From Hormiphora californensis (lineage: Eukaryota > Animalia > Ctenophora): DNA of 64,000 nt. The position numbers and the translations under genes were made by a program. Where the stretch lies: assembly GCA_020137815.1 (NCBI GenBank), contig CM035350.1:8556001-8620000 (forward strand). The letters are read 5' to 3'. The notes beneath the pieces are model-generated. The model was not told where the DNA came from and searched no databases. It was given only the letters and a program-made list of their open reading frames with translations. This document shows, piece after piece, positions 29,633 through 57,531 of the stretch; position 1 is the stretch's first letter, and every line of letters starts with the position of its first letter.

Positions 29633-29695
29633 AAAGGAATATGTTTCGTAGAGTATAAAAGGATTTATTTGTAAAATAATTCATTTTCATTAATT

Positions 29696-31907: not shown

Positions 31908-31916
31908 ACAATCGTT

Positions 31917-32186
31917 TTACAATTCTAACCCAATTGACTTCAAAATTGAATAAACACGCTCATACTTGGTTAAAAACTTTCTCTTCTTCGTGTCCTTAAT
32001 AAATTGTCTGAAAGGTATGCCTAGATCCTCACCATTGTGGTGAATATTTCCATTCTCAATAAGAAACAATCGAGTACAAGCATTGATCAACGGATCCGTA
32101 CCGGTAGAAGGAGTGTACAGGTTTGCCGGGATATTAATTTCCTTACTTTTCCCATTATGCATGGGAACCAGAATATAACGACTCAT
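31917..32186 (-). CDS. Small Polinton protein, unknown function
   Basis: ATG ORF in the tightly overlapping - strand gene run. Confidence 0.55.
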   Translation of the reverse strand: MSRYILVPMHNGKSKEINIPANLYTPSTGTDPLINACTRLFLIENGNIHHNGEDLGIPFRQFIKDTKKRKFLTKYERVYSILKSIGLEL

Positions 32187-32454
32187 TTTGCAGAACTTTC
32201 CGGATGATTTCCGCCACTAGTTTATTATTTTTAATGATAACGTCTTTTATACCGCTCGAGTCTAACAACTTTTTGGAAATAGATTTTCTAATACCAAGTT
32301 TCAACGCTTTTCTACCAATTTCACGCATCAACGTGAAAAATACAGATGGAGCACCCTGAACTATGGCTTTTCGTTTTGACGGAGTAGTTCCAGCATACTG
32401 TTTTAGGATAAACCGATGTTTCTTTAGAGATATACGCTTACCCATGGATCCCAA
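32155..32454 (-). CDS. Small basic Polinton protein (PW-like)
   Basis: KRKAIVQGA...LMREI; directly downstream of the ATPase. Confidence 0.55.
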   Translation of the reverse strand: MGSMGKRISLKKHRFILKQYAGTTPSKRKAIVQGAPSVFFTLMREIGRKALKLGIRKSISKKLLDSSGIKDVIIKNNKLVAEIIRKVLQNESLYSGSHA

Positions 32455-33023
32455 AAATCTGTAATCACAGTCAATTCTTTTGGTAGTAGGGGCGAAAAAC
32501 TTAACAAAACAAATCCTCGTGGTTTATCTGACGCCCTTTTATACGCTTCCAAAATCCTATTGACATCTTTCCCAACAAAAACCTGTCTAGCCAGAGTGTT
32601 GATTTGACGAAAATTTCTCTGATTTTGAAAGAGAACATAATAGTGGGCGTTGGCTGACATAGTTCGAAACGTTTCACAATTCGGGAATAGATTTTGGGTG
32701 ATGAAAAACAAGCTGATCTTTCTATGGTGGGACCCCATGATAAACGCAGAAGCAACTTCTTTGTTTAGACTAAGCAACAGATCATCTATGACAAGCATAC
32801 TCGGTTTGCTAGTGTCGACCTTGGCAAAATCCAGACCCTCTATAAAACAAATTTCAGGGTGCTCGCTCATAAAGGGCTGCTCGACTGAATACATGTAAAA
32901 TATTCGGTCAGGGAATGGCTCAATTAGTCTTTCCCTAATCACACGTAAAATGAATTGAGTCTTTCCTGCTCCGGTTTGTCCATAAACTATGGTATTGTGG
33001 TTTGCTAAAAACTTGATAGGCAT
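32424..33023 (-). CDS. A32/FtsK-like genome-packaging ATPase
   Basis: Walker A GQTGAGKT, Walker B LVIDDL, SHHRKIS..ITQNLF. Confidence 0.96.
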   Translation of the reverse strand: MPIKFLANHNTIVYGQTGAGKTQFILRVIRERLIEPFPDRIFYMYSVEQPFMSEHPEICFIEGLDFAKVDTSKPSMLVIDDLLLSLNKEVASAFIMGSHHRKISLFFITQNLFPNCETFRTMSANAHYYVLFQNQRNFRQINTLARQVFVGKDVNRILEAYKRASDKPRGFVLLSFSPLLPKELTVITDFWDPWVSVYL

Positions 33024-34052
33024 CTAAAAAACTTCTTGATGATCTACCCAACTGTTGGCTGCGTCAGTGTATCCTTGCCACTTCACTAAATACTGTAGCT
33101 TTCCTCTCACTTTTCTCTTCCCGACAATTTTTTCAACTGGATAGATGCTGCTTGATGTATTCACTTTCTGGACCTCTACTTCATAGAAACTGCCCTTTAA
33201 TACATCGCCGTTATAATCTTTTATACTATACGTGACTGGGTCTGTGTTTTTAACCTTGTTGATACTAAATATTTCGTACTGCCATGTCTGCTCAGAACCC
33301 TTTTCAAATGGATTTTTCAGGCGAGTTATCCTGACACTATCGCCTACTGCAAGCTTAGGTGGTCGTTTTTTAGGACGTGGGGGGTATAGTATTTTGCGAA
33401 CTTTCTTCTCATTTTCCTGGGTCACGTCCACAGGTCTCATTTTAATGGATCTATGATAACTATTATTGTACCCATTCACCAAATCATCTAGTATATCGAC
33501 CCAACGAGGTTTACCCAAAGCAGTGAAGGCTCTTAACATACGCATACGTAAAGATCGGTTGACTCTCTCGACAATCGCACATTTGCGGTCCGATGAAACT
33601 GAATAATGATCCACATCGTTAGCGGCTAAAAAACGCTGGAACTTTTTGTTTAAAAATTCGCCTCCCTCATCCGTCTCAAACTTCTGGGGCTTATGTGTTT
33701 CAATCAGTGATTTCAGCGCGTTATAGACACTATTACCAGTCTTGTTTTTAATTTTAAAGGCCCACAGACGCTTAGAAAATGTATCAATCACAGTAATAAT
33801 CCACTTGAATCCGTCATTTACTGCAGAGTCAGAGCTCATATCAACCAAGTCTGCCTGAAAATGATAACCAATTCCCCGTGAATAGATTCTCCTAAAACGA
33901 CGTGGTTTTTGTGTTGGCTTATGCAATGTGTATGCGTTATTTCCTTCTAGAAATTTAGTCACATCAGAAAGTTTTCCTTTTCCAAGAGCCCGATGGAAGG
34001 CAGCTTTGCCAGTGAAGGCTCCGGGAAATTTGGGGTCTGTATAAGAATCCAT
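33024..34052 (-). CDS. RVE (DDE) integrase with C-terminal chromodomain
   Basis: YTLHKP, QADLVDM, IDTFSK, TDEGGEF, ERVNR; chromodomain YPVEKIV...YLVKWQGY..AANSWV. Confidence 0.97.
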   Translation of the reverse strand: MDSYTDPKFPGAFTGKAAFHRALGKGKLSDVTKFLEGNNAYTLHKPTQKPRRFRRIYSRGIGYHFQADLVDMSSDSAVNDGFKWIITVIDTFSKRLWAFKIKNKTGNSVYNALKSLIETHKPQKFETDEGGEFLNKKFQRFLAANDVDHYSVSSDRKCAIVERVNRSLRMRMLRAFTALGKPRWVDILDDLVNGYNNSYHRSIKMRPVDVTQENEKKVRKILYPPRPKKRPPKLAVGDSVRITRLKNPFEKGSEQTWQYEIFSINKVKNTDPVTYSIKDYNGDVLKGSFYEVEVQKVNTSSSIYPVEKIVGKRKVRGKLQYLVKWQGYTDAANSWVDHQEVF

Positions 34053-34111
34053 ATTAATAGCAGCTCTCTGCGAGGGTATAAATAGGTTTTTGTCTCCGAA
34101 TTTACCGAAAA

Positions 34112-34708
34112 ATGGAGTGCAAATTTTGTAAACAATCTTTCGAAAATTGGACGTCTTTGCTCCAACACGAAGAGCAGTGCACTATTAGTAGTACCGGTAG
34201 TACTAAAGAGGAGGTAACCAAACCACAGTCATCTAAATCACCGACTAAATTTGAAAGGCTATACAAAAACAAACTGAGGGATTGCCAGAGAATCAGCAAA
34301 GAAAGTCAGAAAAAGATCAAGATCTTAAACGATCAGTTAAAGGAGCTGAAAATTAATATTGATGACCCTAATTTTAATGCTTTTTCTAACCGTGTTGTAA
34401 ATAGTGAAACCGTGAAGGATTACTTCCGGATTTGTGAACTTGTGTCTGAAAGTCAAGTGGCTACGTTAAGCAAAAAGTTACTTACTTCATTCCAAAAACT
34501 GATTGTAGGCCTGAGTTATGGAGTTGTCCCAATAACGACACCACAGCGTATCCAGTTGACTAGTGAAGATCGAAATTTTATCGCCAAGATTGAAGATCTC
34601 TCACTCGCCAAGGTTAAGAATCTGGTCCTGAAAAATCGGAAATCTTTTATAAACATAATTAATATTTTACGAGAGAGTATTATATTTTTGAAAAGTGTCA
34701 TGAGCTAA
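34112..34708 (+). CDS. Polinton zinc-finger / coiled-coil protein
   Basis: N-terminal CKFC...F...L..HEEQC; TATAAAA near 34077. Confidence 0.7.
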   Translation: MECKFCKQSFENWTSLLQHEEQCTISSTGSTKEEVTKPQSSKSPTKFERLYKNKLRDCQRISKESQKKIKILNDQLKELKINIDDPNFNAFSNRVVNSETVKDYFRICELVSESQVATLSKKLLTSFQKLIVGLSYGVVPITTPQRIQLTSEDRNFIAKIEDLSLAKVKNLVLKNRKSFINIINILRESIIFLKSVMS

Positions 34709-34823
34709 AACAAAAGAGAATTTGTAAAAACAAGAAATGAGTGAATTTAAAAATACTGAACTCTGATTGGTCAGCATGTATACACATATAAAAAGGGGTT
34801 GACTTGTATACCTTTCATTCATA

Positions 34824-35222
34824 ATGTTGTTCCTGGAGAATGTTTGGCTTGGTGTCCTCTGCGACCGACTAGTCCAAAATGCAATGAAGATTTCTGAAAA
34901 AGAATGCCCTGGTCATAAGGAAAAGTTCAACTCCCCATTGCTACATCTATGTCGCCAACTTTCATTGTATGAGAAACTGGTAAAATACTTTGAACCAGCT
35001 AAAGGGAACTTGTTTAAAAAGTTGGAAAATGAATACACGTTGATTGAACATGTTGTACCCCATTCTGACAAACCCGAAGAGGACAAAAGGTATTACCTTG
35101 AGTTCGCAAGAAACTTTCTGCTGAGTGTGACTCCAGACGCTGTGTACTTTGGTAGATACATCTCTGAAGATAACGATCAAATAATTAGTTTGAAAAAGAC
35201 TAAAAAGCGTAAGAGTGCGTAA
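34824..35222 (+). CDS. Small Polinton protein with CxxH...HxC motif and basic NLS-like tail
   Basis: CPGH...LLHLC; KKTKKRK; TATAAAA near 34787 followed by TCATTC. Confidence 0.65.
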   Translation: MLFLENVWLGVLCDRLVQNAMKISEKECPGHKEKFNSPLLHLCRQLSLYEKLVKYFEPAKGNLFKKLENEYTLIEHVVPHSDKPEEDKRYYLEFARNFLLSVTPDAVYFGRYISEDNDQIISLKKTKKRKSA

Positions 35223-35470
35223 GAGTGTCAAGAAAAATAAAACAAAGTGATTTTGTAAAAATAAGTGATTTTTTTAAAAAAATAAAATATCTCGTTTTAA
35301 TTGTCTTACACTGTACACACTGTGTCCATGAAGCCTGGGCACAGTATCAATCACATGCATGAAGCCTGACAGTGATCTGTACTTAATGGTCATAAAAATT
35401 GTACAAACTGTGTGCATGAAGCCTGACCACAGTATCAATCACATGCATGAAGCCTGACAGTGATCTGTAC

Positions 35471-38400
35471 TTATCTAAGCTTGTAATGACCATAACTTAA
35501 CATATCTACACCATTGTTCAAGATATACTTCTTGTCATCAAAAGCAGATAATGCTCTCTTACATACATTCACAGTAAAAATATTGTTTTTCACTGTTCGT
35601 ATAGCTCTACTCGTGGCTAGGGAAGTACCACTCTCTTGAAGAATTGTCCTATAGTTCTCGTGAGTAATGTGCTTCTTTGCAGTACGTGATACACCCTTGG
35701 CCTTTGCTGTATGACCACATTCTGGACCAGTCAGCTTCTTTGTTAGGATCGAGTACATCTTTGGCTTCAGGGCAATCACTTCTCTGATAATCTCAGTAGG
35801 AAGCTCATCAGAAAACTTTCCTGGGACCTTTTTGTTCTCCATGTTTCGGAACTGTGACAGAGGAGTTCCTTCTTTGTACCCAGAGAGATCCATCAGATCC
35901 TTCATGTTGAAAAGGTCTTGATAGCTGTCCTCTGTTTGAACGGAATAGACGAAGGAGTCTGTAGTCGCTGAAGAGGAGCTTGATTTTGTCACCGTATCGG
36001 GGCTTTAGAACTTCGTACCAAAACTGGTACATAATGTGCTTGGCGTTTTCTAGCACCATGAAACCACAAAAAATGGGTTTGTTGAGCATAATTCTAGCCT
36101 TCGAGCACTGGACTAAGGTGATGTCTTTATCCAAGATATGGGCTCCCATATACTGCGGCTTTGATGTTAGCTTTAGCGCCGCTTTCTCAGTGGTAACTAC
36201 CTTGACATCAGTTCGCTTTCTTACTGACTCGATGAATTTTCCATAGACAGAGTTGTTGCAAAGCTTCCAAAAGTCTTTTGAGAAGTCATCAGTTGCTTCC
36301 TGCCGTTTTGCTGAGTTGAAGTTGATGTAAGGACTCATGAAATCCTCTTGGTCAGCAGTCAGAACTCTGTGGATCTTTGTCAACACAAGCCCGTGTTTCA
36401 AGAACAGCTGCAGATTTTTCAGAGAGCATGTGTATCTTTCTTTGGCGTATAGATCAGGAATAAGCTTTCGAGAGGAAGAAAACACCTCCCCGTGCTGCTC
36501 CAAGAACTGTTTGTTGTACTCCGAGAGCAGTGCTTCTTCTACCATTTTCCCTTCGACAGCTAGAGGATAGTCTGTGTGACTGTCGTGAAGGTGATCGGGA
36601 TAATCCAGGTCGACTTCAAAGATGTAGCACTTGTCTCCTTCCGGATCCAGCTTTTGGACATCTAGAGAGTCGATTTCTTCCTGGGATAGCCATTTGAAGT
36701 TCTTGGTTGGCATCTTGTTCTTCATGCTCGCACCATAAAGATTGTTGGCATCAATGTAGTTGATGAATGAAATGGGATCCTCCGGGTTGAAATCATCCAA
36801 GTATTTGTTGTTTGCCTTGGAATGTCGATGATTTACCGTGGTGACGCCTCCTCGAAGCGCTTTCTCGATGAAGGTGTACATCTCAATGTCTGTCAGGACC
36901 TCAAGTTTCACTTTTGTCATCCTCAGCATGGCATCCCAAGCAAAGGCCGGGAGACTGACATAGTGACAGGGATCAAGACCATGAGCCTCCAAACAGAGCG
37001 ACCGGAAGTTCTCGAAAACATCGCAGAGCTGTAGAGTGTCAGTCAGCACGTACAAGTGCATATAGTCACGTAGATTTTTACAACCCATGACTTTGTAGAC
37101 ATTTTGGGCTCGCTGATAATCCTTTTCAGAAATGTGGGACTCTGACAATTGACTGTAAAATGCTTCTTTGGGCGGAAGGTTCTTTTCTTCAAAGACACTG
37201 AACGAGGTGGCGTAGTCGTAAAAGAACACACCTTTTTCAGCTAAAAGTTCACACTTCTCAGGGAACTGTTTCTTTAGGCTAGGAAATTTGTCTATTCCTG
37301 ACTTCTTCAAGTTGCTTGTCAGGCGATCAAGAGAAGTGGACAAGAAAGCGAAGCTATCCAGAAACGTGAACTTGTCTGTGAATACGGCTTTGATTTTTTC
37401 TAAGTTCTCTGGAATTAAGCTGATAGGAGGTATGTTTGGTGACTCCAGATCAGCATCACGTTCATCATCTTCTTGGCAAAATCTGACCAAATCTCGCAAG
37501 AAGAGATTCAGGTCATACCCCTTCATATTGTGGGCGAATGCAGGGACTTTCTTTGTCCGGTTGAAAAAGTTAAGATTGCACTTGTTGCAGGCAGCACCTC
37601 GGAAATTGTTTGTCTTTTTCGAGTGGTCATGATCTCTCACAGGATAGTTTGACTTCGACTTCCAATCAAGATCTTTGTGACATATGTGGCATGATAATGA
37701 TGCCTGGAACTCTAGCTCGTCATCATCTGTCATATCGATGGGATGCTGGTTCTTCTTATAGCATTTCATCATGCTGTCGTGGATTCTTGACAGCTCTGTT
37801 ATGAATGTCTTAGACACCACGACAGGGTCTAGGTGACTGAAGACGACTGGTTCCTCCTTGAAATCTTTGAACTCTGACACTGCCACAATGGCAAACCCAC
37901 AGGGAATATGTTTTTGCACGAGTGTCGTCGATGAAGACTCTGGCATGCATGTCCTGTAGGGCATAGTGAGGCACTCAAAGTCGTAGTAAATTCTAAAGAG
38001 CTTTTTGTCTTGCTTGTGTTCTGCATCAAACTCGATGTATCCAGGCTTGGGCATGACTGGAATCTGGTTAATCCCCTGCATGCAGAAGACGGAATGTTGC
38101 TCCTGCTTGTCTTGAGCTACAAAACCATGAAGGCATTTCCTGCAGTAGAACATTGAGTTTTGATATTTTGTTCTATGTCGCATAAAGGCGTTGAAGTCTT
38201 TTATCAGCATAAAATGAGAGGTGTTGTTATCTTCGATATAAAGTAGATCTATTTGTTCGCCAACACCAGTGCCATGCTTCAGTGGGATGACATATTCTTG
38301 CCCAAACTCGCCTTCACACCACTGGAAGATCGATATAGAGAGCTCATTCAAGCGCTCAACTTTGGGAATATCATTCAGTTGCACAGGAAACTTGACTCCT

Positions 38401-39236
38401 CCCATGTTAAAGTTTCTGGTGTTTCCATTTTTGTCCACATGATTCCCTTTTTCATATTTTTTGTAGGAGCTATGTCTTTCAGAATGATCTTTTACTGGAA
38501 AGAGATGGGCTAGTATGCAGTAGAGGAAGCATCGGTTATCGTTGGACTTTATATTTAGTGTTGATTTCTTGTCGCTTAGTTTCTTTGAAATGGCGACAAA
38601 TCCGGAGCCTTCCAGTGGGGAATATTTGGCAATCTCAAGTTTAGAACATTTGTGTTGATCAAAATTCCATCCACTGCCATGTCGCTCATAGACTTCAACA
38701 CTGTGCCGGAGGATTATTCTAGCTCGTCTGAAAAAATAATCCATATTATCACCTACAAGAAGAGGCTCACACTGGGAACGAAAGACTTTTTCTGCTTCTT
38801 TTCTTTGTCCATCAGATTCTTTGTAAAAGGAAAGGCTTACTGTCAGTTGACACTTTACTGGGTGTCTCTGTACTGCAGCCTCCATAATCGGGCGAGCAGT
38901 GGAACAAACTTTTTCAAAGATTGAGTCATAGTCGTCCGAGCTTGTAAAGCGAAGATCATAAGAGTTGAAGAATCCGTTAACAGAGGAGCAATCTGACCTA
39001 TCCATGTGCTCATGGACACCAGAGACGCGGTTGCAGAGTGACTCGTCTAGATGGGCATGACATAGGACTCGATGGTTGAAAAATCGATCTTCTCTCACGT
39101 TCCTTTTGCATGTAGGACACTCAATCTTAGTGTTATGAGTAAGCAAATGTCTATTAAGGTTCCTTGAAAGTACATACTTTTGGCAGTGTATACATTTAAC
39201 TTTGTTCTTCTGATGTCTTGACTTGGACTTATTCAT
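35471..39236 (-). CDS. Protein-primed family B DNA polymerase (pPolB), split by one +1 indel at ~35963
   Basis: Exonuclease YYDFEC, HNMKGYD, DSFAF; polymerase YIDANNLYG, KLCNNSVYGK, (S)DTDS after removing 1 nt, KMYS, KAKGV; N-terminal zinc fingers and EndoVII-like CHIC...RDHDH...CNKCN. Joins ORFs 35808-39236 and 35471-35992. Confidence 0.97.
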
Positions 39237-39469
39237 TGCTTAATCCCTTGTTTAATTCCTTGTTTAATCCCTTGTTTAATTCCTTGTTTGATTCTTTGCT
39301 TGATTCCTTGTTTGATCCTTTGTTTGATTCCTTGCTTAATTTCTTGTTGAATGAGCAGTGCAGACATCAGGCACTAGCTTTTATAGCTCACAGTAACGCG
39401 TGACATTTTGTAAATATAACGCGTTACTTATGACGTCATGATAAAAATTGAGCAAACTTTTAGTATATA

Positions 39470-39642
39470 CAGTCGGACCTTGATTTACCAGGCTCCGATT
39501 TACCGGAACCCCGATTTACCGGAAGGATAATCTTCCCCCCGAAGTAGGAAATTAACAGTATTTGACCCCGATATACCGGGCACCCCGATTTACTGGGCAA
39601 AACGCTTTCCCCCGAGCATCACGGTAAATCGGGGTCCGACTG
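39470..39642. mobile_element. Tc1/pogo-type MITE inside the Polinton
   Basis: TA|CAGTCGGACC...GGTCCGACTG|TA. Confidence 0.9.
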
Positions 39643-40400
39643 TATTTGTAAACAAAAAATGACCCTAACTCCCGAGAGTTGCGCGGCATCGGTAAGGTGG
39701 GGATAAGGTAACGCTTTTCAATAAGTTGGTTTGGCCAAAGCTACACTGTTGTCCCTCCTAACGAAAGCGGAGTTGAAAACGCGCACTACGGGAATGCAGT
39801 TGGCATATGCTACATGCCCTAGGCGGAGTTGAAAACGCGCGCACTAGGGGACTGTAGCGTATGCCAAGGAGGCCAGCGTTAAAATCTGGGTGTTTCGTGA
39901 GTGCTGACAAACGGTTTTTTAGGGTTAGGGCTAAAGTAGGGTTAGGGTTAGGGTTGGGGTTCGGGTTGGGGTTAGGCCTTGACATTCCCTACCAGATAAA
40001 CTTTGAATTAGCCAAAACGGTTGAGTGGTTCGGCGGTTAGAGCCGTTTTAGTGAATCAACTTTTTTTGGCAGCGCACACCTGTAAACAGGCCACCAAACA
40101 CCCAGATCGTAACGGCGCCCTGCCAAGGACTACAGCGCATACCAATATATTATATGTTTGTAAAAGGAAAAAAATGGAATAAAAATTCGCGCGGCTTTTT
40201 TCCATTTTGCAGCCTCGCTTTGCAAAACAAATCTCGCGCGTTACATAATATTGCGCTGTAGAATTTTATAGCGCGCGCTATAAAACAAAAATTATTTCTT
40301 GAAAGTCCATACCAGCAAAATCGAGTGCAGTTGCAAATATCACGTGTGTACTCTCACTTCTCTCTGTCACTTCTCAATCTCAATAGTCAGCTCTGTCGAC

Positions 40401-41128
40401 ATGTTTTGCTCCACCAAAGTCTTTGTGTTCGTGATAATCATGCTGCATCCGTTTATCATCGCTTCAAAACAGGAGGTATGTATCGACAAGATCTGATTAT
40501 TCAAAATAGCTTGAACACTATTATAATCTGGTTGCCTTGCTGTCTTCTGTGCTCTATAATTAGACCAAACGACTACTACCATGCACCCAAATGACCAATT
40601 TGAGTATACTAAACATCATCTGATAGACATACATATTTTCAGTGCTGTATCAAGGATTATGATGCGGACAGGAGCGAAATAGACTATTTGATGCCAGATT
40701 TTTGTTCCAAATCCATGCGAATCAATGGAATAACTGGGTGGATCGAAATTACACCGTGTGGTGAGTAATTCCTATTTTTCCTATAAAATCTCTCCCATCT
40801 CTGCTAAATTACTAATTCATTATCGACATATTCAAACTTTCAACCTGTTTCTATCAAAGTCCTCTCTTCAGATCCTGAAGTGGAAACTTTGAAGCCCGAC
40901 CCAGAGCCTGAACTCAGAGCGGCTAGCGACATACCTCCAACTATGATAGCATGGGAAACAGAAGCTACCACTAACCAACCTCCGGAAAGAAAAAACAGAT
41001 TTAATGCTATACCTCTTGCAGTAGGGATAGGAATCAATCTTGTGTTGGTAATTGTCTTCGTGATTGGGGTGATAGTATATCTCAAAAAGAGAAAGGTCAC
41101 TCATGTCTACGAAGAAATCGATGTGTGA
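40401..41128 (+). CDS. Spliced Polinton gene: type I membrane protein, 149 aa (exons 40401-40475, 40643-40760, 40872-41128)
   Basis: Donors GTATGT and GTGAGT, TTTCAG/CTTCAG acceptors, phases 0 and 1 consistent; signal peptide, 4-Cys ectodomain, P/T/E stalk, TM, tail KKRKVTHVYEEIDV. Confidence 0.8.
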
Positions 41129-41694
41129 AGATAATAGTTTGAAGTTACGGATGTGAACTTGTTGTTTTTACATTGTGAGAGGGCTTGAAAGAGGTGAACT
41201 TATTGTTTTTTACATTTTCTGGGGGAACAGAGATGGCTCAACTGACGCCGAGGTGAACTCATATCTTGTTGTTTTTACACATTTTTTTGTGAATTTGTTT
41301 TTAAAATTATCATTTATTCCGTTATATAAGCATTATTCAATTTTTGTACTTTTAAAAGGAGAGATTTCATGAAACTCAAATAAATTAAAAAAATCCCCCC
41401 TCTATTGTTCACACAATAGGGTAATGCCTAGCTATTTGGAATGGCGATTCATTTGAAACGCCCCCTCTGCAGCCTAGCAGGTACAACAGGTTCGCATTTT
41501 TAGATATTAGTGGGTTTTGTTTGGGAGCTGACCCAGTACCCACTAATGTCAAGAAATCCAAATATGCTGTACTTGCTAGCCTGTAGCATGTAGAGGGTGT
41601 TTTAAATTATCCAAATAGAAATTCATTACGCTACAATATTCAATTGTCAAATTCTCTCCAGTCTCCATCTTGTCCATCCGTCTTGTTATACTTT

Positions 41695-42318
41695 TCAAAA
41701 CCCTATCTCGTAGAGGAACTGTCCTGTTCGGTCATCGTAGGTCAATAGCAACTGTTTAGCAATGTAGCTTGAACTACCATCGCAGTCAAATATCTAGGAA
41801 AATTGAGATGAGTATATTTTTGATATATGCAAGATAAGTATGGGGTGAGGACTCCTAACTGGAGGGGTGGGGCTGGGGTAGTGATGGAGTATGTTAGGAG
41901 GTTGAGGAAGATTTGAGCATATTAGGGACCATAAAAGTGTTTAGGGGTTATTCAATTAGGATATCCAGATTTTTCAAATTTCCCACTGTCAAATCCACCT
42001 CTGATGAGACTTTAAATTAGTTTTTTTTTTTGGTAGACCCCTGATCTACAAACAAAAACTAATTTAAAGTCTCATCAGGAATGGAGTTATGATCGTGGGA
42101 AATTTGAAAAATCTGGACGTCCTATTTGACGTCCTATTTGAAAGATCCCTTACCTGTAAAGCAAGTCTAGCTGCTTCGCATCCAGTCAAGCACATGATAT
42201 TTCCTGTTGGTACAATCAGCGTTGGTATGGAGACACCACCACAAATTGTCTCCACTATTACACCATGCTCCCACAGTCTGAAAACTTCCTCCATTGATAG
42301 TTGACATGAACAGAACAT
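41695..42318 (-). CDS. Spliced Polinton gene, 87 aa, unknown (exons 42318-42154, 41793-41695)
   Basis: CAG|GTAAGG donor, TTCCTAG acceptor, phase 0, open to TGA. Confidence 0.6.
41957..42124. mobile_element. Palindromic MITE inside the intron of the 87-aa gene
   Basis: TAGGATATCCAGATTTTTCAAATTTCCCAC / GTGGGAAATTTGAAAAATCTGGACGTCCTA; inner CTGATGAGACTTTAAATT / AATTTAAAGTCTCATCAG. Confidence 0.7.
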
Positions 42319-42373
42319 CTATCGAGTACGGAGTAGGGTTAGTTAGCGGTAGTTGGGAAGGGGGAGGTAGTTA

Positions 42374-42531
42374 CAGTCGGACCCCGATTTAGGGACACCC
42401 TCGGGGGAAAGGCTCTTGTCCACTAAATCGGGGTGTCCACTAAATCGGGGTCAAATAAGGTCAATTTCCTATATCGGGGGAAAAAAAATCCTGTCCCTAA
42501 ATCGGGGTACCACTAAATCGGGGTCCGACTG
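42374..42531. mobile_element. Tc1/pogo-type MITE
   Basis: TA|CAGTCGGACCCCGATTTAG...TAAATCGGGGTCCGACTG|TA. Confidence 0.92.
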
Positions 42532-42709
42532 TATAGGGAGTAAGTAGGGAGAGCTATAAGACTAGTAATTAACGGTTGACGCGCAAAACAAAGTAGGTAT
42601 TTTCAGCACTTGGGCGCGCGCCTTGTACATTTAATCGTATACAAAAAATGTATATTCTAGTTTTACTAGTTTTTTCTCAAACGGACTGGATGGATTGCAT
42701 AGTCATGTA

Positions 42710-42879
42710 CAGTCGGACCCCGATTTAGGGACACCCTCGGGGGAAAGGCTCTTTTCCACTAAATCGGGGTGTCCACTAAATCGGGGTCAAATAAGGTCAA
42801 TTTCCTATATCGGGGGAAAAATCCTGTCCCTAAATCGGGGTGCCACTAAATCGGGGGCCCCTAAATCGGGGTCCGACTG
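42710..42879. mobile_element. Tc1/pogo-type MITE, near-identical to 42374-42531
   Basis: Same TIRs and TA TSD. Confidence 0.92.
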
Positions 42880-43029
42880 TAGTAACAAGTCAACATTTTA
42901 AAAGGATAAATAGTGGCATTTAAAATATGTTAAACACAATAATCAAGAGAGAAACACGGATAATATAATGACACGCTCTATATCTACATGAACACATAAT
43001 CAAATTGTTTTTCTTTGCCTGGTCACATC

Positions 43030-43751
43030 TTAAAAAACAGTTCCCGGTGGGGAAACATCGTCCTGAAAACACTTGGCGCCCCAATAATTCTTAAGAATCA
43101 ACTTGATTTTATCAAGGGCACAGTATCTTGCTGAATGACGGAGAATACACCCCGAATATCCAGTCGAGCTGACTGAGCCCATCGTGTCTAACAGATCGAT
43201 GATCTGTGCATCTCCTGGTAGGGCGGCCGTGAGGAATATTTTCGATACACTCCCATATGTCCAGAAAATCTTCTCGGTCTCATATAATTCTCGTAGGGCA
43301 CTGTAGAAACCAGCTGAAAGTCATATTTTTAGATATCTGTTTCATGTACCATAATAAATTCAGCAAACGTCAAGAAAATTGAATGTAGTGAGATGCTTTG
43401 ATTTACCTTCTGTGTATGCACCATGGTATCCCCTGGGGTCAGCGACGCCCAAAGTTCGTATACAATATCTGAAGGTCGAGTTCCGTGGCAGGAACTCTGG
43501 TTCCACATACCCATGGAAAATTTTTGCTCTTTCGACCCTGTCTCTCGTAGCGGAGAATGCAAATTCGGTTACCACTAATCCTGAAAATATGGGAATATAT
43601 GAAACTCTGACAGGGAAGGGAGGGGGTCTGGTATATTCGGACTGGCCTGGACAGGGAGGGAGGAGGTAAAAACAACCAAAAAAACACCTGATTTATAGTT
43701 TATCCCATCAAGCACAACAAGATTCCCTCGGGGTAGTATGCAGTTGGGCAT
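43030..43751 (-). CDS. Spliced Polinton gene: MAEL/DEDD-fold ECHC-like protein A, 173 aa (exons 43751-43688, 43580-43407, 43313-43030)
   Basis: Two phase-1 GT-AG introns give one ORF: LVVLDGINYKSGLVVTEFAF...FHGYVEP...WTYGS...IIDL...CILRHSARYCALDK. Confidence 0.75.
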
Positions 43752-43838
43752 TGTAGAGGACTAGGTAAGTAGTAACCAAGTAACAAGTTGGAAAGTAGTT
43801 GTTTGAGTTATTTCAAGTTGGGAAGTGAAAATTTTCTT

Positions 43839-44680
43839 GTCGTTTTATAGTCTTCAGTCTGGTATCACGTGATCAGTCCTGACCTAACACCACGCTGTGA
43901 TCTAACACCATGCTGTGATCTAACACCACGCTGTGATCTAACACCACGCCTGATCTAACACCACGCTGTGATCTAACACCACGCTGTGATCTAACACCAC
44001 GCTGTGATCTAACACCACGCTGTGATCTAACACCAGTCGTTTTATAGTCTTCAGTCTGGTATCACGTGATCAGTCCTGACCTAACACCACGCTGTGATCT
44101 AACACCATGCTGTGATCTAACACCACGCTGTGATCTAACACCACGCCTGATCTAACACCACGCCTGATCTAACACCACGCTGTGATCTAACACCAGTCGT
44201 TTTATAGTCTTCAGTCTGGTATCACGTGATCAGTCCTGACCTAACACCACGCTGTGATCTAACACCATGCTGTGATCTAACACCACGCTGTGATCTAACA
44301 CCACGCCTGATCTAACACCACGCCTGATCTAACACCACGCTGTGATCTAACACCACGCTGTGATCTAACACCACGCTGTGATCTAACACCACGCCTGATC
44401 TAACACCACGCTGTGATCTAACACCACGCTGTGATCTAACACCACGCTGTGATCTAACACCACGCTGTGATCTAACACCACGCCTGACCTAACACCACGT
44501 TGTGTTCTAACACCACGCCTGACCTAACACCATGCTGTAATCTAACACCACGCCTGATATAACACCTCGCTGTGATCTAACACCACGTCTGATCTAACAT
44601 GACGTAACGTGATCTAACACCTCGCTGTGATCTAACATGACGTAACGTGATCTAACACCTCGCTGTGATCTAACATGACG
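43839..44680. repeat. 18/16-bp tandem array (CTAACACCACGCTGTGAT) with three higher-order units each containing a TATA box
   Basis: Roughly 40 monomers; header GTCGTTTTATAGTCTTCAGTCTGGTATCACGTGATCAGTCCTGAC at 43839, 44036 and 44196. Confidence 0.95.
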
Positions 44681-44810
44681 TGACGTGATAGGTGAAAGAG
44701 CGTGAATCACGCAATTTATTAGTATAAATAATCTAGGTCTCAGCGGGAACTTCACTTCGACAGTCAGCAAGAAACAAGAATATCCGAAAGAACAAGACAC
44801 AACAAGAATA

Positions 44811-45401
44811 ATGGCTGAGATTCCTAGTTCATCTCAAGACGTATGCGATTCGACCAGAGACCGTTTTGCTACTGTGATTTCAGTGATAAAATCGGATGAA
44901 TGGGACTGTCTAATTCTACTCATGCAGACCCAAAATGGGTTTTGGCAAGATATATGGATCACTAGACTTTTTAATGGACACCCCTTGTTTGATAATATTA
45001 AAAAAGGAAGAAAAGTTTATACAGAGGGCCTGAGATTCTCAAACACTTTCTTTAAGCTTTTAAAAATAGAAATAGTCGATTTTGAGAGTTGTTCTGTGTG
45101 TGGTAATTACTACCAAGGGGAATGCTTGCGATGTTGTGATGTCTCTAAAGACCCAGACGTTAGGAAGATAGATGGAGCTTGGGTTTTGAAACGTGTTACC
45201 AAAACCCCCCGTCATCAAACTTTTCTTTTTAAGAAACAAGTGACCCCAAACAATATTCCTGACGTGTTAGGAGTCGCAGTGTTTTCTGCCCAATACAAGT
45301 TTCTAAAGGAACCGGAAACTGGGCGTTGTTACTTTCTTGAAGGTTGGCAAGACAGGAAAACCAGAAAGAACAGTATTGTAATGTCGTGTCTATTAAAGTA
45401 A
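44811..45401 (+). CDS. Polinton 196-aa protein with central CxxC...CxxC zinc ribbon between two beta-rich halves
   Basis: ATG ORF after TATAAAT (~44723); CSVC...CLRC. Confidence 0.7.
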   Translation: MAEIPSSSQDVCDSTRDRFATVISVIKSDEWDCLILLMQTQNGFWQDIWITRLFNGHPLFDNIKKGRKVYTEGLRFSNTFFKLLKIEIVDFESCSVCGNYYQGECLRCCDVSKDPDVRKIDGAWVLKRVTKTPRHQTFLFKKQVTPNNIPDVLGVAVFSAQYKFLKEPETGRCYFLEGWQDRKTRKNSIVMSCLLK

Positions 45402-45553
45402 TCATGCTAATATTGGAATATTAATTATTAATGTAATAATATTATAATTTGAAACTGTTTAATTTAAGTATGTAGTATGTGAATGTCTGACTCCACCTTC
45501 CACGCTCCCTCCCTCATGATTCAATTACATTTTCCCGTATATAGGCTTTGAAG

Positions 45554-46119
45554 ATGAAAGTACTATTGACGACTGACGGTGTAAATCTCAAGAGAGGGTT
45601 TTACCCTCGTGAGTGTGTTCTATCTTATCGAAGATATGGTCGTGTATTTAGTAGGACTTTCTACATTTCTCCGCCAGGTAATTAAATCTCTCCATAATCA
45701 CTTGAAGCGAGATTCTCTCACTCAGACTGTGGACTATGCCTTTTACAACTAACATTTATTAATATTTCAATTGTTCAGATATAAAATTGACGCCCGGAGA
45801 CAAAAAAACTGTTTACTACACGACCCATGTACTAGGAGGTCTTGGCTTCAAGACTGTGAAAGACTCGATACCCTACGAGACCTTTGTGGGGATTCTCAAG
45901 AGACACTCGGGAGACGAAATAATGACCAACGGATCCACAGCCGTCCGCTTTGTGAGAGAGAATATTACCAGAAATGTGAAGGACCTCTTAGTGGAGTTGG
46001 ACATTGCAATTCCGAATACACTCCCTGTATTGTGCCCCGAGCAACACGAGAACAAATACTGTTCGATTACCAAACACGAGTTCTTCAAAAAGCTTTTGAT
46101 TGATGGACGAATGATTTAA
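45554..46119 (+). CDS. Spliced Polinton gene: MAEL/DEDD-fold ECHC-like protein B, 154 aa (exons 45554-45677, 45779-46119)
   Basis: CAG|GTAATT...TTCAG phase-1 intron; VLLTTDGVNLKRGFYPREC...IMTNG...VKDLLV...CPEQHENKYCSITK. Confidence 0.78.
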
Positions 46120-46221
46120 TATTTTCTTGTTAATGTTATTCTAAAAACAAACAGTTCTTAAATATTGTAAAATAATTAGATTTATAAATAATAAAATATT
46201 GTCTATTATGTCTATACCATG

Positions 46222-46842
46222 CAGGGGTGGCCCCAGTACGGATTTTTTGGGGGGGTGGTGTGGCCTTCGGCCACACTTCAAGTCCAAACCTAGCGACCGA
46301 GGTTCCGCGAAGCGGCGCCGAGGGAGCTGCGGCAGGGGGTTTGGGGGGCGCAGCCCCCCAACGGGGTCCAGGGGCAGAGCCCTTGGTGGGGGCCAGGGGG
46401 CGAAGCCCCCGGAAAATTTTAGTTTTTGATGAATTTTAAGCATTTTGGAACAACTTTTTTAACAATTTTCAGCAGTTTTAGAAAACTTTTTCAACGAGTT
46501 TCAGTCACAAGGGGCGAAGCCCCCCTGGAAATTTTAATGAATTAAAGCAATTTAGAACAATATTTTATCAATTTTCAGCCCTTGGTGGGGGCAAATTTTT
46601 TAATGATGTTCAGCCCCTGGTGTGGGTAAGGGGCAAAGCCCCCGGAAAATTTTAGTTTTTGATCAATTTTAATTAATTTAGAACAATATTTTAACGATTT
46701 TCAGCCCTTGGTGTGGGTAAGGGGCGAAGCCCCCGGAAAATTTTAGATTTTGATCAATTTAAAGCAATTTAGAACACTTTTTAAAGCTATTTTACCACCC
46801 CCAACAACCCCTGTTTGAAAAGTTTTGGGGGGGCCACCACTG
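46222..46842. mobile_element. hAT-type MITE inside the Polinton
   Basis: TIR CAGGGGTGGCCCC / GGGGCCACCACTG; 8-bp TSD ATACCATG; GGGCGAAGCCCC internal repeats. Confidence 0.9.
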
Positions 46843-46877
46843 ATACCATGGAGGTATAATCTCCCAAGATTGGATCA

Positions 46878-47433
46878 TCAGTAGTTAGACCCTGGGCTCG
46901 GAACTTCTTCTTTCACGTTACCCAGTATGGGCTGAACTATACACACAGGTCTATCCGATAGGATAGACCTGTGTGTATAGTTCGGCCCATACTGGGTGAC
47001 GTTGTGATCCGAGGTTACCTCTACAGAACAGTCCGGTGCATGAAGAGTCCGGTGCAGAGTCTGGTGCAGGTCCGATGCAGGTGGGAGAGGGCTGGGGATG
47101 GTGTTGGAGAGGGCTGGGGATGGTGTTGGCGGAGTGCCGTGCAGTGTGCCGATATCGAGCCAATCCCTGTCCATGGTCCCGTCATGTTGAGGTACCGCTG
47201 TGTTCTGAGGTGGTCCAGGGGCCGAGTTGTTATAGTTGATCGTCATGGTCTGCAAAAATGAGAATAGTTTAGAAAAATAACAGGGGGGAAGGGTGAGGAA
47301 GGAAATTCAAAATCAACTCGCATAACTAATGGTAGTGTGTAGCACTCATGGAAGTGGGTACCGGTAGTGCTGTTAGTGAGAGACAACTTACAGTCGCATA
47401 AAAGTATGTAGGGTAGGAAGATGCAGGGTCCAT
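46878..47433 (-). CDS. Spliced Polinton gene, 137-aa Pro/Ser/Thr-rich protein (exons 47433-47392, 47249-46878)
   Basis: MDPASSYPTYFYAT|GTAAGT...TTTTGCAG|TMTINY..., phase 0. Confidence 0.6.
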
Positions 47434-48052
47434 AGTAAAGTCGTAGGGTCGTAGTAAAGTCGCTCGCAACTAGAACTGGAACTGTACTGATAGTCTGAGA
47501 AAATGAGGGGTGTTGGTCATATATATAATACAGTAGGCAGATGGCTTACCAGCCAGACTAGGAGGTACTAATTGGTCACACTATGAGAGTTATAGTGAAG
47601 GAAGACAATGGAAAAACGAGTTGTTAGCCAGGCCAGGAGGTGTGATGCGTATTGTATGATGGTAGACGAGGAGGTAAGAAAAGTCGCACTATGATGTGAT
47701 ATATAGCGAAGAAAGAAGCTGGATCAGATCAAGGTACCCGCTACGAGTTGTTAACCAGGAGGTGTGATGCGTGTGATGGTAGTAGTCCTTTGTAAATGTG
47801 ATTGGACTTGGAGTAATGGAAGGTGTGGATTAAGAAGACTATGAACTGGAGCGTTGGGAGGTGAGAGTTGTTATCCAGGAGGTGTGATGTCCAACTGTTA
47901 TATGATAGTAGCAGGCGTTGTAAATGTGATTGGAGTAATGGGAGGTGCGACTAGATGTTGAAAATTATCTAATATAATCTGTCCCATATGAGAGTGATAT
48001 ATTAACAAGGAAATAAAACGAGGATTTAAAGGAAAATAAGAATTCACGTAAA

Positions 48053-48445
48053 TCAAAATTCCCATAAAATTTCTCTTTCTTTTCTCTTTCTAAAAAACTC
48101 TAATCTATCCATAAATTTAGCTTCTCCTAATACTTCTCTACCGTCGTATTTAAAATTTTCACAATCACATGTATGTAAGTAACCATCTAGTAATATTCCA
48201 CCTCTATCACGGCATACTGGTAAACCAGCACATTCATAAACTGCAAAGGTAACGCGTCGAAGATTTTTCTGTTTCTTCATATCAATATCTTTCTTATCAA
48301 GAAATTTATCACTGTTTGTCGTTATCCCAAGTTTAGCTAGTGCGTCTGAGAAATCGAGTGTAGGAATCACAATATCCTTTTTCTTTTTAGTCCCGGAAGA
48401 AATAGTTGAATTGTGTGTTGTCGACATCTTGATAATATAGTACAC
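48053..48445 (-). CDS. Polinton protein with RVxF PP1-docking motif (probable ATG at MSTTH)
   Basis: KNLRRVTF...MDRLEFFRKRKEREIL. Confidence 0.65.
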   Translation of the reverse strand: MYYIIKMSTTHNSTISSGTKKKKDIVIPTLDFSDALAKLGITTNSDKFLDKKDIDMKKQKNLRRVTFAVYECAGLPVCRDRGGILLDGYLHTCDCENFKYDGREVLGEAKFMDRLEFFRKRKEREILWEF

Positions 48446-48649
48446 TTTTTACAATTCAATCTATTGGATCGTATTTCGTCTAGTCTAGTTGGCGAGTCTT
48501 TTGAGGAATATCGGACTTTCAAGTTGGACATTGATCAATTGAATCAGAGTACTAATTGATTTTCAAACTTTTTTTTCGGTTTAAATAGTTATGTTCGTCA
48601 AAAACAACGCGTTACATATTATAGATCACGTGCTATATGCTATATGACC

Positions 48650-48806
48650 CATCATATGATATATCACGTGATTATGACGCAGTGGTGTGACGTCACAATC
48701 ATGCCATGTCATGTGACATCATGTAACATCACGTGATATGCCCAAATATGGAATAATGTTGTGACTCCCAAAATCGTGGGGCATCGTCACTATTTTAAAT
48801 ACTACT
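48650..48806 (-). repeat. Polinton right TIR
   Basis: Reverse complement of 27641-27797. Confidence 0.97.
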
Positions 48807-49449
48807 TACGTCGCTACTTAGTCGTTACTAATCGTGATCTGATGTTTTGACGCTTTTGCCTACACCCAATCACCCCTGTAGGCATTATTACCATATCAGC
48901 AGTAATTTTGACGCTTTTGCCTACACCCAATTATCTATGCTGTAGGCATTATTGCCCGTAGGCATTATCGTACTTTACTGTAGGCATTATTGCCATTGTA
49001 GGCATTATTGCTGTTTTGACGGTTTTGCCTACACCCAATTATCTATGCCCTTAACCCCTGTAGGCATTATTGACCGTAGGCATTATCGTACGTAATCATC
49101 TGGCATGTGCCAGTTGCCACACCTGCTTCTAATTGGGCACTGATACGTGAGCCGGTATAGCTGATGGGTTGCCTGAGCTATGTGATATCCTAGTAATAAT
49201 AAGTCGCAGTTCCGATCACAAATGCAGAACAATGTTCATTGCACCATGACGTAGGGCGCGATGACAAATCTATGAACATTTGTAATTGCAAGTGCAACAT
49301 AAAGGCGCCGCGCACATGCGCGCGAATTTCCTGTTGTGTTCAGTCAGTAAGTGACAGCATTCCGCACTGGATAGTTGCCAACAGCAACTCAGGAGGTTAC
49401 GTTACAGGAAAAGCGTGACACTTCACTAGTATGTAATTGTAAAATTGTC

Positions 49450-52417: not shown

Positions 52418-55400
52418 ATGGATAGTGAAGATGGGGATAGTGACAAAGAAAATCGGGATCCAGCTCTTATGGAGCCTCTGATAACTCCACCCTCTGGGTC
52501 CCTGAAGCGGAAACACAAACGCCGTAAGCCCCGTTCATCACCTTCTCCCCATTTGGTTGCCAATGTAGAACATCATTGCTCTCTAACAGAAGTGAGTACT
52601 GGGTGCCCTTAGCTTACTGTTCATTTGATATTTTCATTTAAAATTTGACAGTTTATATTAAATTTGTGACTTTTGTTTCAGAATTCCTTCGTATTTGCCA
52701 AGTTTGTGGACATATGGGAGCCAGGCCGAGTGATACAGATGACCAGTCCCTTCAACATTGTCTGTTTCCGATTCCTCAAGGACGACATCGGCAGTGCATC
52801 TCAAACCAAAATCTGCTCCTTCCTAAAATATGGCTCTAAAGTGGACTTTGACCTACTGGAGTCAGACACAACGTATAGGAAGGGAATTATCAGTGCTGTA
52901 GCGGAGTTTGCTAATATCCACAGACCTGATCTGCTCCGAATGAGTGACAGAGACACAATGCTCCTTGATTGGGCGAGATTTGGGTTTATCGGTTGTAAGC
53001 TTCTTAAATCCCCGAAATCTGGTAAAGTCCTATTTCCCGACTCTACTCACGTCCTTTCCGAACTGGTAGAAAACTCAGCAGTAGAAGAGGAAAACCGTCC
53101 CACAACTAGTTCCCGATCATCCATCCCAATACCATCACCTTTGGTCCGTTTGGAGGGTACACCAAAACGCAGGAAGCTATCTTGTAGAACAGAAGACAGT
53201 GGTTACAGTTCACCGGTCATCACTCTGTCTGAGGTTGGGTGTTTTGTTATGGGCAAACTCAGGGGCTACGGATGGTGGCCTGGTAGGGTAAGTTGTTATG
53301 ATAACCGTCATTCTCTTTCTCACTCGCTATTTATATTTCACACTCTTGTGTTCTCTCTCTCCCTCTCTTTTAGAAACATTATACCCTCAGATTATAGAGC
53401 CCGAGAGAGGCCCCCGGCCCTGTGACGAGGGAGAGCGGCTGGTCAACTGGTTCGGGGACTGCACACATTCCATTGTCTCAACCAGGGATCTAGTGGGTGT
53501 TTCTGGGTTCGGGAAAGTATACCAACCAAAACGAAAGGGCCTCTATCGGGTAGCCCTGTATGATTTTCTATCGGATATTGCGTGGGAGGTGAACTATACA
53601 TCGGTTACAGCACCAGACACGGTCAATATAGATGAAGATGCCCTGGAGAAGTTGTTGCAGTGGGCTCAGGGAGGATTTAAACCGACTGGGCCACCACGGG
53701 AGTGGGCACGGGGCCAGAACTATACCAGGCATTTCTCTGGGTGTGCAAGTTGTGGGGGATCTGATGTGTCCCTACAACACCCCGTGTTCCTCGAGTTGAG
53801 GTTGTGTGATGGATGCAACGAGAGTTCTTCAGGTGAGTGTGTTCATGTATTGTTCACTGCTCACTGCTCATATTGTTAATTTCATCTCACTATTCACATA
53901 ATACCTTTCCACGTGAAAGAGTCTGAACAAGGCTCACGTTTGGAACTAAACCAGATTTAATCAGTTAATAATTCCCCCCCCCCAGGATGTCGTGTGTGCT
54001 ATAAAGATTCCACTATGATGCTGTGTTCTGAATGTCAGAGTTCCTACTGTCAGGAGTGTCTAACTCGTTACTCTATTGGCCCCTCCGATGACTACAGTGA
54101 CCCTTGGAGCTGCCCCCTTTGTGTACCTTACCCCAACATGACACCCCGTGCTGACATGGTAAATAACTGTTTTTATTCCTTGTTTGTTTTATCCATGCAG
54201 CCTAATTTTGGGTTTGTTTTTCATTATGTTGTTGCTAGAATTATCTTCCACCAGCTAACCCCTCCCTCGCAATATTTCAGGAAGGAAGTGAGGAGGGAGA
54301 AGAAGACGAGCCAGCAGCTGTGATTCTTGAGGAACTAGAAGGAGACATTTACCAGCCCTTTGTACCTCCACCTTTACCGAAATTCCGCAAAGCCCTCCGA
54401 GTACTATCGCTCTTTGATGGCATTGGAACGGGCATGGTGGCCCTCAAATCTCTCGGGTTCAAGGTGTGTTGTTTGTTATGTTTCTTGTCAGGGATGTATG
54501 TGTGTGTGGAGAGAGAGAGGGATGTGTGTGGAGAGGATGTGTGTGGACTGTGGAGACTGGAGGTGTGTGTGAATATGTGTGTGAAGATGTGGAGAGAGGG
54601 CTATGTTTGTGTTTGAGGTCCACGGAAGAACCCTATCTCGGCCGCATTTCTATTTTCCGACACATTATTATATGCTGTAACCTTGCAAAATTGAGTAGAG
54701 AGAGGGTGATAAACGGGGGCCACACTGTGTGTTGGGAGGTTGCCAAGTAGTAGATCTGGAGTGATTCATATTGGGAGGACTGAACTACATGTTATAAAAT
54801 CTCATTGAGTCCTGTGTGTGAACTCCCTTTATTCATTGGACTCGATAAACCGTACACTCATGATGGAATTATCATGGCACGAACAAAAACACCCATAGCA
54901 TAGAGTGAGAGAGAACGAGAGAGAGAGAAAGTTATATTTTAGAAGGCATATGTGTCTTGATCTGATAGACAATGCCCTGCCTCTCTGTTTAACAGGTGTT
55001 CCCCACCAGGTAAACTGTCTATTGCGTGGTGTCTAACACACACACCCCCCCCCTTACACTCGTCACACGCCCCTGATTTCTACAAGTATCTCTTCATATC
55101 TCCCCCTTTCTGTCCAGTTATCAGGATACATAGCTAGTGAGGTATCCCACTCTGCCCTAAACTCCACTATATTACCCTCTTTCTAGGTATCAGGATACAT
55201 AGCTAGTGAGATGTCCCACTCCTCTCCCGCCCTAAACTCCACTATACTCCCCTGTCCATGTATCACTGATGTGTCCCACTCCCCTCCCCCTACTCACTCC
55301 TTTCTGTCCAGGTATCAGGCTACATAGCTAGTGAGGTGTCCCACTCCCCTCCCACCCTCTAGTTACACTCCCGGGGGTGGCAGAAAGGAGTGGAAGGGAG

Positions 55401-57495: not shown

Positions 57496-57531
<36 letters not shown>

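Follow-up and report, generated by a model that had tools for sequence, protein, structure and literature searches.

Polintons are usually annotated as sets of intronless open reading frames (ORFs), and where genes with introns turn up in such elements they are taken for host cargo. How, then, is one to understand a Polinton in which a whole arm appears to be made of small spliced genes? The question is raised by a 64,000-nucleotide (nt) stretch from the ctenophore Hormiphora californensis (assembly GCA_020137815.1, contig CM035350.1, positions 8,556,001 to 8,620,000, forward strand), here called the window, in which a Polinton of 21,166 bp spans positions 27641-48806. A sequence-only reading had placed five intron-containing genes, here A to E, inside this element, between the polymerase gene pPolB and the right terminal inverted repeat (TIR), and had interpreted them as a host-interaction cassette of the adenoviral E3/E4 kind. 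We consider it probable that the arm is a set of separate small genes spliced by the host, and that two of them, C and D, belong to a duplicated, intron-gaining Polinton family with a catalytically dead, Maelstrom-like fold.

The five models were rebuilt exactly as proposed. All are in phase, free of stops and joined by seven GT-AG introns of 93-360 nt. Gene A (40401-40475, 40643-40760 and 40872-41128, + strand) has three exons and encodes 149 amino acids (aa); gene B (42318-42154 and 41793-41695, -) has two exons and 87 aa; gene C (43751-43688, 43580-43407 and 43313-43030, -) three exons and 173 aa; gene D (45554-45677 and 45779-46119, +) two exons and 154 aa. Gene E (47433-47392 and 47249-46878, -) joins a first exon of 42 nt to a longer second one for a total of 137 aa. 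The read-through frame meets stops in six of the seven introns; intron 1 of C is stop-free, but its length is not a multiple of three. An intronless core does lie beside this intron-bearing arm. The arm itself is not uniformly spliced since two intronless ORFs are mixed in, ORF F (44811-45401, +, 196 aa) and ORF G (48427-48053, -, 124 aa). That the genes of the arm are invisible to ORF calling, as had been maintained, is overstated: besides F and G, exon 2 of E is by itself a 122-aa ORF with an ATG.

The strong donors that had been quoted are present in four of the seven introns. GTGTTT, GTAAAT and GTAATT make up the remainder. A host gene resembling DNMT3, about 4 kb past the right end of the element, uses GTAAAT, GTAATT and GTGTGT among the donors of its eight introns, and the arm resembles it in splice signals and intron sizes, with GT-AG ends, phase-preserving junctions and U2-type features throughout. 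Scored with human-type weights, all seven donors fall within the top 54 of the 1156 GT sites of the arm and the acceptors rank 2-294 among 1075. With the same weights, a signal-only scan at four thresholds found 2, 3, 9 and 1 loci in the real sequence versus means of 0.33, 0.35, 1.35 and 0.08 in shuffled sequence; 4, 1, 0 and 5 of 60 shuffles, respectively, reached the real count. The homology of D and C is stronger evidence for the exon models than the signals alone. Identical, repeated introns can be dismissed because a self-BLAST of the arm shows no sequence common to the seven, and self-splicing introns of group I like those of PLVs (RF00028-type) can be dismissed because Rfam gives 0 matches at gathering score in 27600-48850. 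Among the joints listed for DNA contigs none matched a predicted intron. Reads from run X9, guessed to be RNA, touched only dispersed repeats and have no bearing on expression; the small-share marine metagenome rows X7 and X8 were set aside as indications of habitat. Taken together, the five gene layouts are likely spliced by the host. By our reckoning splicing is nearly certain for D, very likely for C, almost as likely for A, somewhat favored for E and slightly short of an even chance for B.

Gene D is the firmest of the five. A HMMER search of 1.84 billion proteins with D exon 2 returned eight matches; four of them, 148-167 aa in size, are complete and uninterrupted, and D exon 1 aligns with their first ~40 residues. 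A profile of seven unbroken homologs was then compared with 2641 six-frame pieces of the window. The top three pieces were D exon 2 (E 2e-22), C exon 3 (2e-8) and D exon 1 (0.005), followed by the next piece at 1.5; the first of these matches arises by construction, the second and third are independent. On the profile, exon 1 of D accounts for positions 3-40 and exon 2 for 41-153, and the two meet at the GT and the AG. The spliced protein, with an X at the junction, scores 88.0 bits versus 68.0 for exon 2 alone, with no gap at the junction. Scanning metagenome_contigs with D exon 2 alone gave no match. The three nearest relatives of D, the database gene calls P0001-P0003 (88, 52 and 50% identical), are truncated, and their similarity starts at the residues F-S-[DE]-I, which is how an acceptor of the TTTTCAG type would be read. 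In the tree they fall together with D (support 97/95). Because of this start and this grouping we infer that the D intron is old and common to all four. These truncated proteins, which begin just before the acceptor position, also bear out the expectation that ORF-based annotation loses such genes.

The family to which D belongs is encoded at 12 metagenome loci. Its gene is continuous in eight, cut by the contig end in one, partial in two and split by an intron in one. The last case, in the Polinton-type contig L008 (183-710), has its own 81-nt phase-1 GT-AG intron (430-510) with two stops and lies just upstream of a capsid module. At nine of the 12 loci there is also a match to a further gene of the present element, and L003 and L009 each carry capsid-like, protease, ATPase and integrase genes; L003/L004 and L005-L007 are near-copies, and some loci may be integrated elements. 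In the related contigs the family gene stands amid core-region genes, often beside pPolB and a homolog of ORF34824. One contig, L006, has an 840-aa ORF (3512-6034) beside a polymerase fragment; it looks like a retroelement insertion and suggests an integrated copy. When projected on the residues of the homolog P0006, the intron sites of the family fall at ~13 and ~70 (gene C), ~38 (gene D) and ~81 (L008), i.e., at four different positions. Since most relatives are intronless and the four sites differ, gain appears the better explanation than loss. That a viral family with few introns should have them at four distinct sites speaks for separate gains rather than the capture of a host gene, and the introns of C and D were thus likely acquired inside a Polinton gene.

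Gene C is an old, diverged paralog of D. It aligns with D from end to end at a score reached by only 3 of 2000 shuffles. When C was forced onto the profile globally, its real score was equalled in 0 of 150 trials with exon 1 shuffled, in 1 of 150 with exon 2 shuffled and in 0 of 150 with both. Junction 1 of C leaves intact the 12-residue distance that separates the motif-I acid from the conserved Glu. BLASTP of D exon 2 versus C exon 3 gave no match. C and ORF F are divergently transcribed, and a tandem array of 17-18-nt units (43845-44690) separates their promoters; it contains CACGTG-like boxes and copies of the TATA-box region of C, and may be an enhancer or an origin.

What kind of protein do C and D encode? 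An AlphaFold model of P0006, the one member of the family that was modelled, has a predicted local distance difference test (pLDDT) value of 93 and the DnaQ-like/DEDD exonuclease fold. Its VIA Z scores are 11.3 for the DNA polymerase III subunit Pol III epsilon (1j53; root-mean-square deviation 2.9 over 133 residues), 10.7 for Maelstrom and 10.3 for Lassa NP, which amounts to a tie. Among viral proteins Foldseek ranks those of ichnoviruses and adintoviruses highest, at template-modelling (TM) scores up to 0.75, the latter value being that of a protein of Drosophila-associated adintovirus 2 (BFVD A0A7D4ZHK6). The ichnovirus (polydnavirus) matches are ORFs on segments from Glypta and Apophua wasps which have the C/D-family fold, a possible link from Polintons to polydnaviruses. 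In the Atlas P0006 falls among unnamed, mostly arthropod clusters; Maelstrom is the nearest named one at 0.86, to be taken as a lead only.

An alignment of 23 rows, C and D included, points in the same direction. The motif E-C-H-C, common to Maelstrom and the arenavirus exonuclease ExoN (PMC7968707), is kept in 23, 23, 22 and 23 rows, respectively. In the P0006 model its Glu is on strand 2 and its Cys/His residues precede the last helix. With catalytic columns assigned by way of MAEL numbering, the first catalytic Asp is found in 0 of 23 rows and the position of the last Asp is Lys in all 23; the hallmark of an active DEDDh exonuclease is thus missing at both ends. Bombyx MAEL offers a parallel. 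It has E137, C290, H293, C302 and R306, is inactive and binds single-stranded RNA (PMC4408791), and like the C/D family it has lost the catalytic Asp and has a basic residue, there R306 and here Lys, four positions after the last Cys. Because the E-C-H-C residues are kept and the Asp residues are lost, as in inactive Bombyx MAEL, C and D are predicted to be zinc-stabilised pseudo-nucleases of DEDD fold, catalytically dead. The MAEL domain (PF13017), arenavirus NP and the C/D family share the DEDD fold with the E-C-H-C residues in matching secondary-structure places. Arenavirus NP retains DEDDh and is active (active-site residues in PMC3429428), whereas the C/D family is predicted dead; metazoan Maelstrom has an HMG box, which the ~150-aa C/D proteins lack. 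The sequence identity between the C/D family and Maelstrom or arenavirus proteins is 11-18%. PF13017 gave no match at E<=1 for six family proteins, searches of Protein Data Bank sequences with family profiles found nothing below E 0.25, and a scan of viral_contigs with the family alignment found no match. At most the family works in the manner of a MAEL domain, and we do not file it as Maelstrom.

Gene A has a different anatomy. It is predicted to be a type-I membrane protein with a signal peptide, an ectodomain piece with three Cys, a Pro/Glu/Thr stalk and a transmembrane helix. Exon 1 encodes the hydrophobic leader; exon 3 the helix, a basic stop-transfer signal and a tail ending in YEEI, which we take to be an SH2-type or sorting motif. 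Hydropathy peaks at residues 2 (2.09) and 116 (3.03). In run X5, from another study, two contigs which may come from different copies of the element show 13 changes in 351 coding nt of A versus 5 in 614 intron or 3' nt (Fisher p 0.002). The sequence-only reading had suggested a ratio of non-synonymous to synonymous divergence (dN/dS) below 1 in the exons as a check. A does not show this: 12 of the 13 changes are non-synonymous, one is synonymous and none creates a stop, so we reject purifying selection on this gene. This variation fits a real, fast-evolving surface protein, and A is likely to sit at the cell surface, to carry a tyrosine-based motif on its cytoplasmic side and to evolve under diversifying selection. 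It has no homolog in the 12 Polinton loci, nor was one found with exon 3 in viral_contigs.

E and B are supported moderately and weakly, respectively. E is rich in Pro/Ser/Thr and its exon 2 is of low complexity. A TATAWAW box lies at -94/-92 of exon 1, and none precedes the ATG of exon 2. In a contig of run X2 (record 6), none of the changes listed for E affects the ATG or the donor; exon 1 has one letter in and one out, which cancel, length changes occur upstream, and the two isolated changes are both synonymous. E has no Polinton homolog in the 12 loci. B is Cys-rich, and its donor is the best of all 1156 GT sites of the arm. In the Atlas its exon 1 finds unnamed clusters only (0.85). The ATG of B directly follows an acceptor-like stretch (42319-42370, -) with two CTAAC, pyrimidines and AG, suggesting an intron in the 5' untranslated region or a trans-splicing site. 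As to the two intronless ORFs, F has a homolog in the Polinton-type contig L012 (E 5.5e-6) and none by word-based search, and its fold model is unusable (pLDDT 36); for G, run X5 lists a variant that creates a stop. Run X5 covers none of B and ORF F and little of C, from which we draw no conclusion, contigs attesting presence only.

How do these data fit the proposed E3/E4-like cassette? A single, alternatively spliced early unit of this kind is very improbable. The arm is subterminal, and the layout of A resembles that of small E3 membrane proteins. But the strands of the five spliced models and two intronless ORFs alternate (+,-,-,+,+,-,-), and 92-122 nt upstream of A, of C and of E exon 1 there is in each case a separate TATAWAW. 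Within 200 nt such a box also precedes ORF F and 8 of 10 tested core ORFs, the ATPase and integrase genes excepted, at a chance expectation of 0.165 per 200 nt. Genes on both strands with separate TATA boxes do not make one E3/E4-like transcription unit. Further, no arm piece has a Pfam match at E<=0.05, adenoviral or other. A more serious proposal is that the arm genes are host cargo captured together with their introns, as in nematode Mavericks (bioRxiv 2022.07.12.499685). The likeness of the splice signals and intron sizes to those of the host DNMT3-like gene speaks for it, and it may hold for A, B and E, which have no Polinton homolog in the 12 loci. For C and D it encounters the fact that their nearest kin are uninterrupted genes of Polinton-type contigs together with adintovirus or ichnovirus proteins, and that the four intron sites differ. 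For the arm as a whole we consider capture the less likely course, at roughly one chance in three or somewhat below.

Could the introns instead be insertions that broke the genes of a decaying copy, with GT-AG ends fitted afterwards? The copy is damaged: pPolB is frameshifted, and miniature inverted-repeat transposable elements (MITEs) have inserted. Intron 1 of C and the intron of B, the latter with a 178-nt foldback (41952-42129), contain dispersed or foldback repeats. Genewise is reported to read insertions in eroded Mavericks as introns (Barreat and Katzourakis, PMC8097293), and the excess in the signal-only shuffle test is modest. However, against the family profile the break in D is an exact GT-AG excision which recurs in relatives at 50% identity, every exon is open, and the repeats lie outside the exons save for one hairpin in E. 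Decay is therefore improbable, albeit less so than the adenovirus-like unit.

Several observations weigh against our own account of separate, host-spliced genes, in addition to the modest shuffle excess. The case for splicing is drawn from DNA. The acceptor of P0001-P0003 is read from residues, as these are protein records, and both listed changes of D in run X5 are non-synonymous. In C, local scoring with a hidden Markov model detects exon 3 alone, to which exons 1 and 2 add nothing (31.3 vs 31.4 bits); the donor of intron 1 is weak, the intron lacks a stop and resembles exons in GC content, and in the tree C sits on a very long branch. For A, dN versus dS alone is not significant (12/269 vs 1/73, p 0.31), and in one contig of run X2 exon 3 is longer by an inserted nt. 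An ATG is already present three codons into exon 2 of E, which also holds an 88-nt hairpin (46915-47002). B has six candidate acceptors, the signal scan chose another stop for it (41742), and neither the 12 Polinton loci nor a scan of viral_contigs with its exon 1 provided a homolog. As to the fold, the Maelstrom match is tied with those of several plain DEDD nucleases, and the zinc-site grouping is predicted from sequence columns.

With these reservations the following course of events is conceivable. The integrated element would be transcribed in the nucleus by RNA polymerase II from per-gene TATA promoters, and the host spliceosome would remove the introns from the arm transcripts. C and D would yield dead nuclease folds which bind RNA non-catalytically, RNA binding being likely by analogy of fold and motif. 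This binding could blunt host surveillance of the element by small RNA or double-stranded RNA (dsRNA), a putative anti-silencing role, while A would act at the cell surface. The host-interaction role once proposed for the arm thus finds a foothold in the host-facing anatomy of A; for C and D it is a suggestion, because the family is intronless and amid core-region genes in related contigs. Blunting of surveillance is the role of C and D which we tentatively prefer, although we would give it less than an even chance. Close behind comes the possibility that the genes are spliced as proposed and that C and D serve replication or RNA handling of the element itself, e.g., as a nucleic-acid-binding cofactor, with no effect on the host. 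The position of the family gene amid core-region genes, its wide distribution and conservation, and a fold equally near to DNA exonucleases favor such a role. The E-C-H-C motif, special to Maelstrom and arenavirus ExoN which are both RNA-related (PMC7968707), does not, and duplication together with the fast divergence of C suits an accessory function. A bolder version of the surveillance hypothesis is that animal Polintons carry a dead Maelstrom mimic as counter-defence against PIWI-interacting RNA (piRNA) or dsRNA pathways, and that the gene repeatedly gains and keeps introns since spliced transcripts pass as host mRNA and so evade a surveillance aimed at foreign genes without introns. It invokes the four independent intron sites, one held across 50% protein divergence; we regard it as rather unlikely.

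Where does this locus stand among known systems? Its layout has been reported before. Nematode Mavericks have been described in which the core lacks introns and a subterminal region of 2-5 kb contains genes with introns, interpreted as cargo from the host, namely wasp proteases and krma kinases (bioRxiv 10.1101/2022.07.12.499685). The present element has the same intronless core and variable, intron-bearing subterminal region; as described in that preprint, however, the nematode region contains one cargo gene taken to be host-derived, whereas here ~8 kb hold five candidates, two of them from a Polinton family with lineage-specific intron sites. Vertebrate Mavericks share with our element TIRs, a 6-bp target-site duplication (TSD), pPolB, integrase, ATPase and protease, yet intact copies are reported to have no introns in any gene (PMC8097293), unlike this arm. 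Dinoflagellate eupolintoviral proviruses contain introners, gained mostly after integration (PMC12166617). There, as here, spliceosomal introns were apparently gained within Polinton-like elements, but introners are intron-generating transposons and the seven introns here have no common sequence. The portions available of PMC12220804 (group I introns only), 10.1101/2023.08.22.554363, PMC11296320, 10.1101/2024.03.25.586562 and PMC11131425 contained nothing that bears on the matter.

A Maelstrom-like gene is likewise no novelty. Maps of adintoviruses carry the label 'MAEL' four times in supplementary Fig S2 of Starrett (PMC8502044), whose main text is silent on it, and for this reason we do not claim the likeness as new. 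These genes, in Polinton/adintovirus genomes as here, very likely belong to the C/D family, as suggested by the BFVD match A0A7D4ZHK6 (TM 0.75); the figure gives the label only, with no introns, duplication or catalytic loss described as for C and D. In main texts we found no link between Polintons and Maelstrom or DEDD genes; supplements may name the family or its introns. New at this locus are the duplication and likely repeated intron gain in a Polinton gene of Maelstrom-like type, and a gene for a surface protein whose changes follow a diversifying pattern.

The remainder of the element conforms to a Polinton. The left TIR (27641-27828, beginning AGTAGT) and the right TIR (48625-48806, ending ACTACT) are 94.7% identical over 188 columns, show the AG...CT ends, and are flanked by a 6-bp TSD (27635-27640, the same six letters at 48807-48812). 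The intronless core (28232-39236) comprises protease, ATPase, integrase, pPolB and two capsid-like ORFs. Judged by where they lie, how long they are and how well related contigs conserve them, 28892-29632 (246 aa) is the candidate minor and 30037-31473 (478 aa) the candidate major capsid ORF; neither has a Pfam match, both are kept in the expected place in related contigs, and a scan of viral_contigs with the major capsid-like ORF found no match. The C5 (adenain-like) protease (31470-31907; PF00770, E 4.4e-4) and the packaging ATPase (33023-32424, -; PF02456, E 6.5e-4) are under the curated cut-offs; compared with ORFs of related contigs the ATPase is 45-63% and the protease 30-42% identical. 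Integrase with a chromodomain follows at 34052-33024 (-; PF00665, E 7.8e-13). pPolB (39236-35471, -) has a frameshift near 35960. It matches polymerase ORFs of contigs L003 and L007 and has no Pfam PolB match; what we take to be PolB motifs are visible in its translation. MITE-like insertions occupy 39468-39644, 42372-42533 and 42708-42881, all outside predicted exons. Given the frameshift and these insertions, the copy is probably non-autonomous.

Some further features were seen along the window. Within pPolB, residues 509-555 (37570-37712, -) resemble endonuclease VII (PF02945, E 1.8e-4). A short run of TTAGGG-like repeats (39918-39975) lies between pPolB and gene A. The left-end ORF 28232-28852 (+) has a weak hydrophobic segment, and weak homologs of it adjoin the C/D-family gene in L001, L005 and L006. 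The host DNMT3-like gene (52739-57852, +) is an open chain of nine exons with PWWP and ADD hints and methyltransferase motifs, which points to an animal host; its intron 4 contains tandem copies of the start of the next exon (55100-55607). An apparently intact long interspersed nuclear element (LINE; 11450-15615, -) has an ORF1 of 369 aa and an ORF2 of 1030 aa with endonuclease and reverse transcriptase (APE-RT). A Gly/Met/Pro-rich repeat ORF (58721-60172, -, 483 aa) has a leader peptide and repeated Cys/His modules.

What does the arm mean for the biology of Polintons? On a practical level, ORF calling truncates real Polinton genes, P0001-P0003 being examples. A viral-family gene with introns at several sites offers a datable system for intron gain. 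A widespread, unnamed Polinton family with the zinc motif of Maelstrom and arenaviruses and a dead active site is a candidate for coping with germline RNA silencing. If the counter-defence hypothesis were true, the arm would be a hidden, fast-evolving anti-host module which ORF-based virus annotation has missed across animals.

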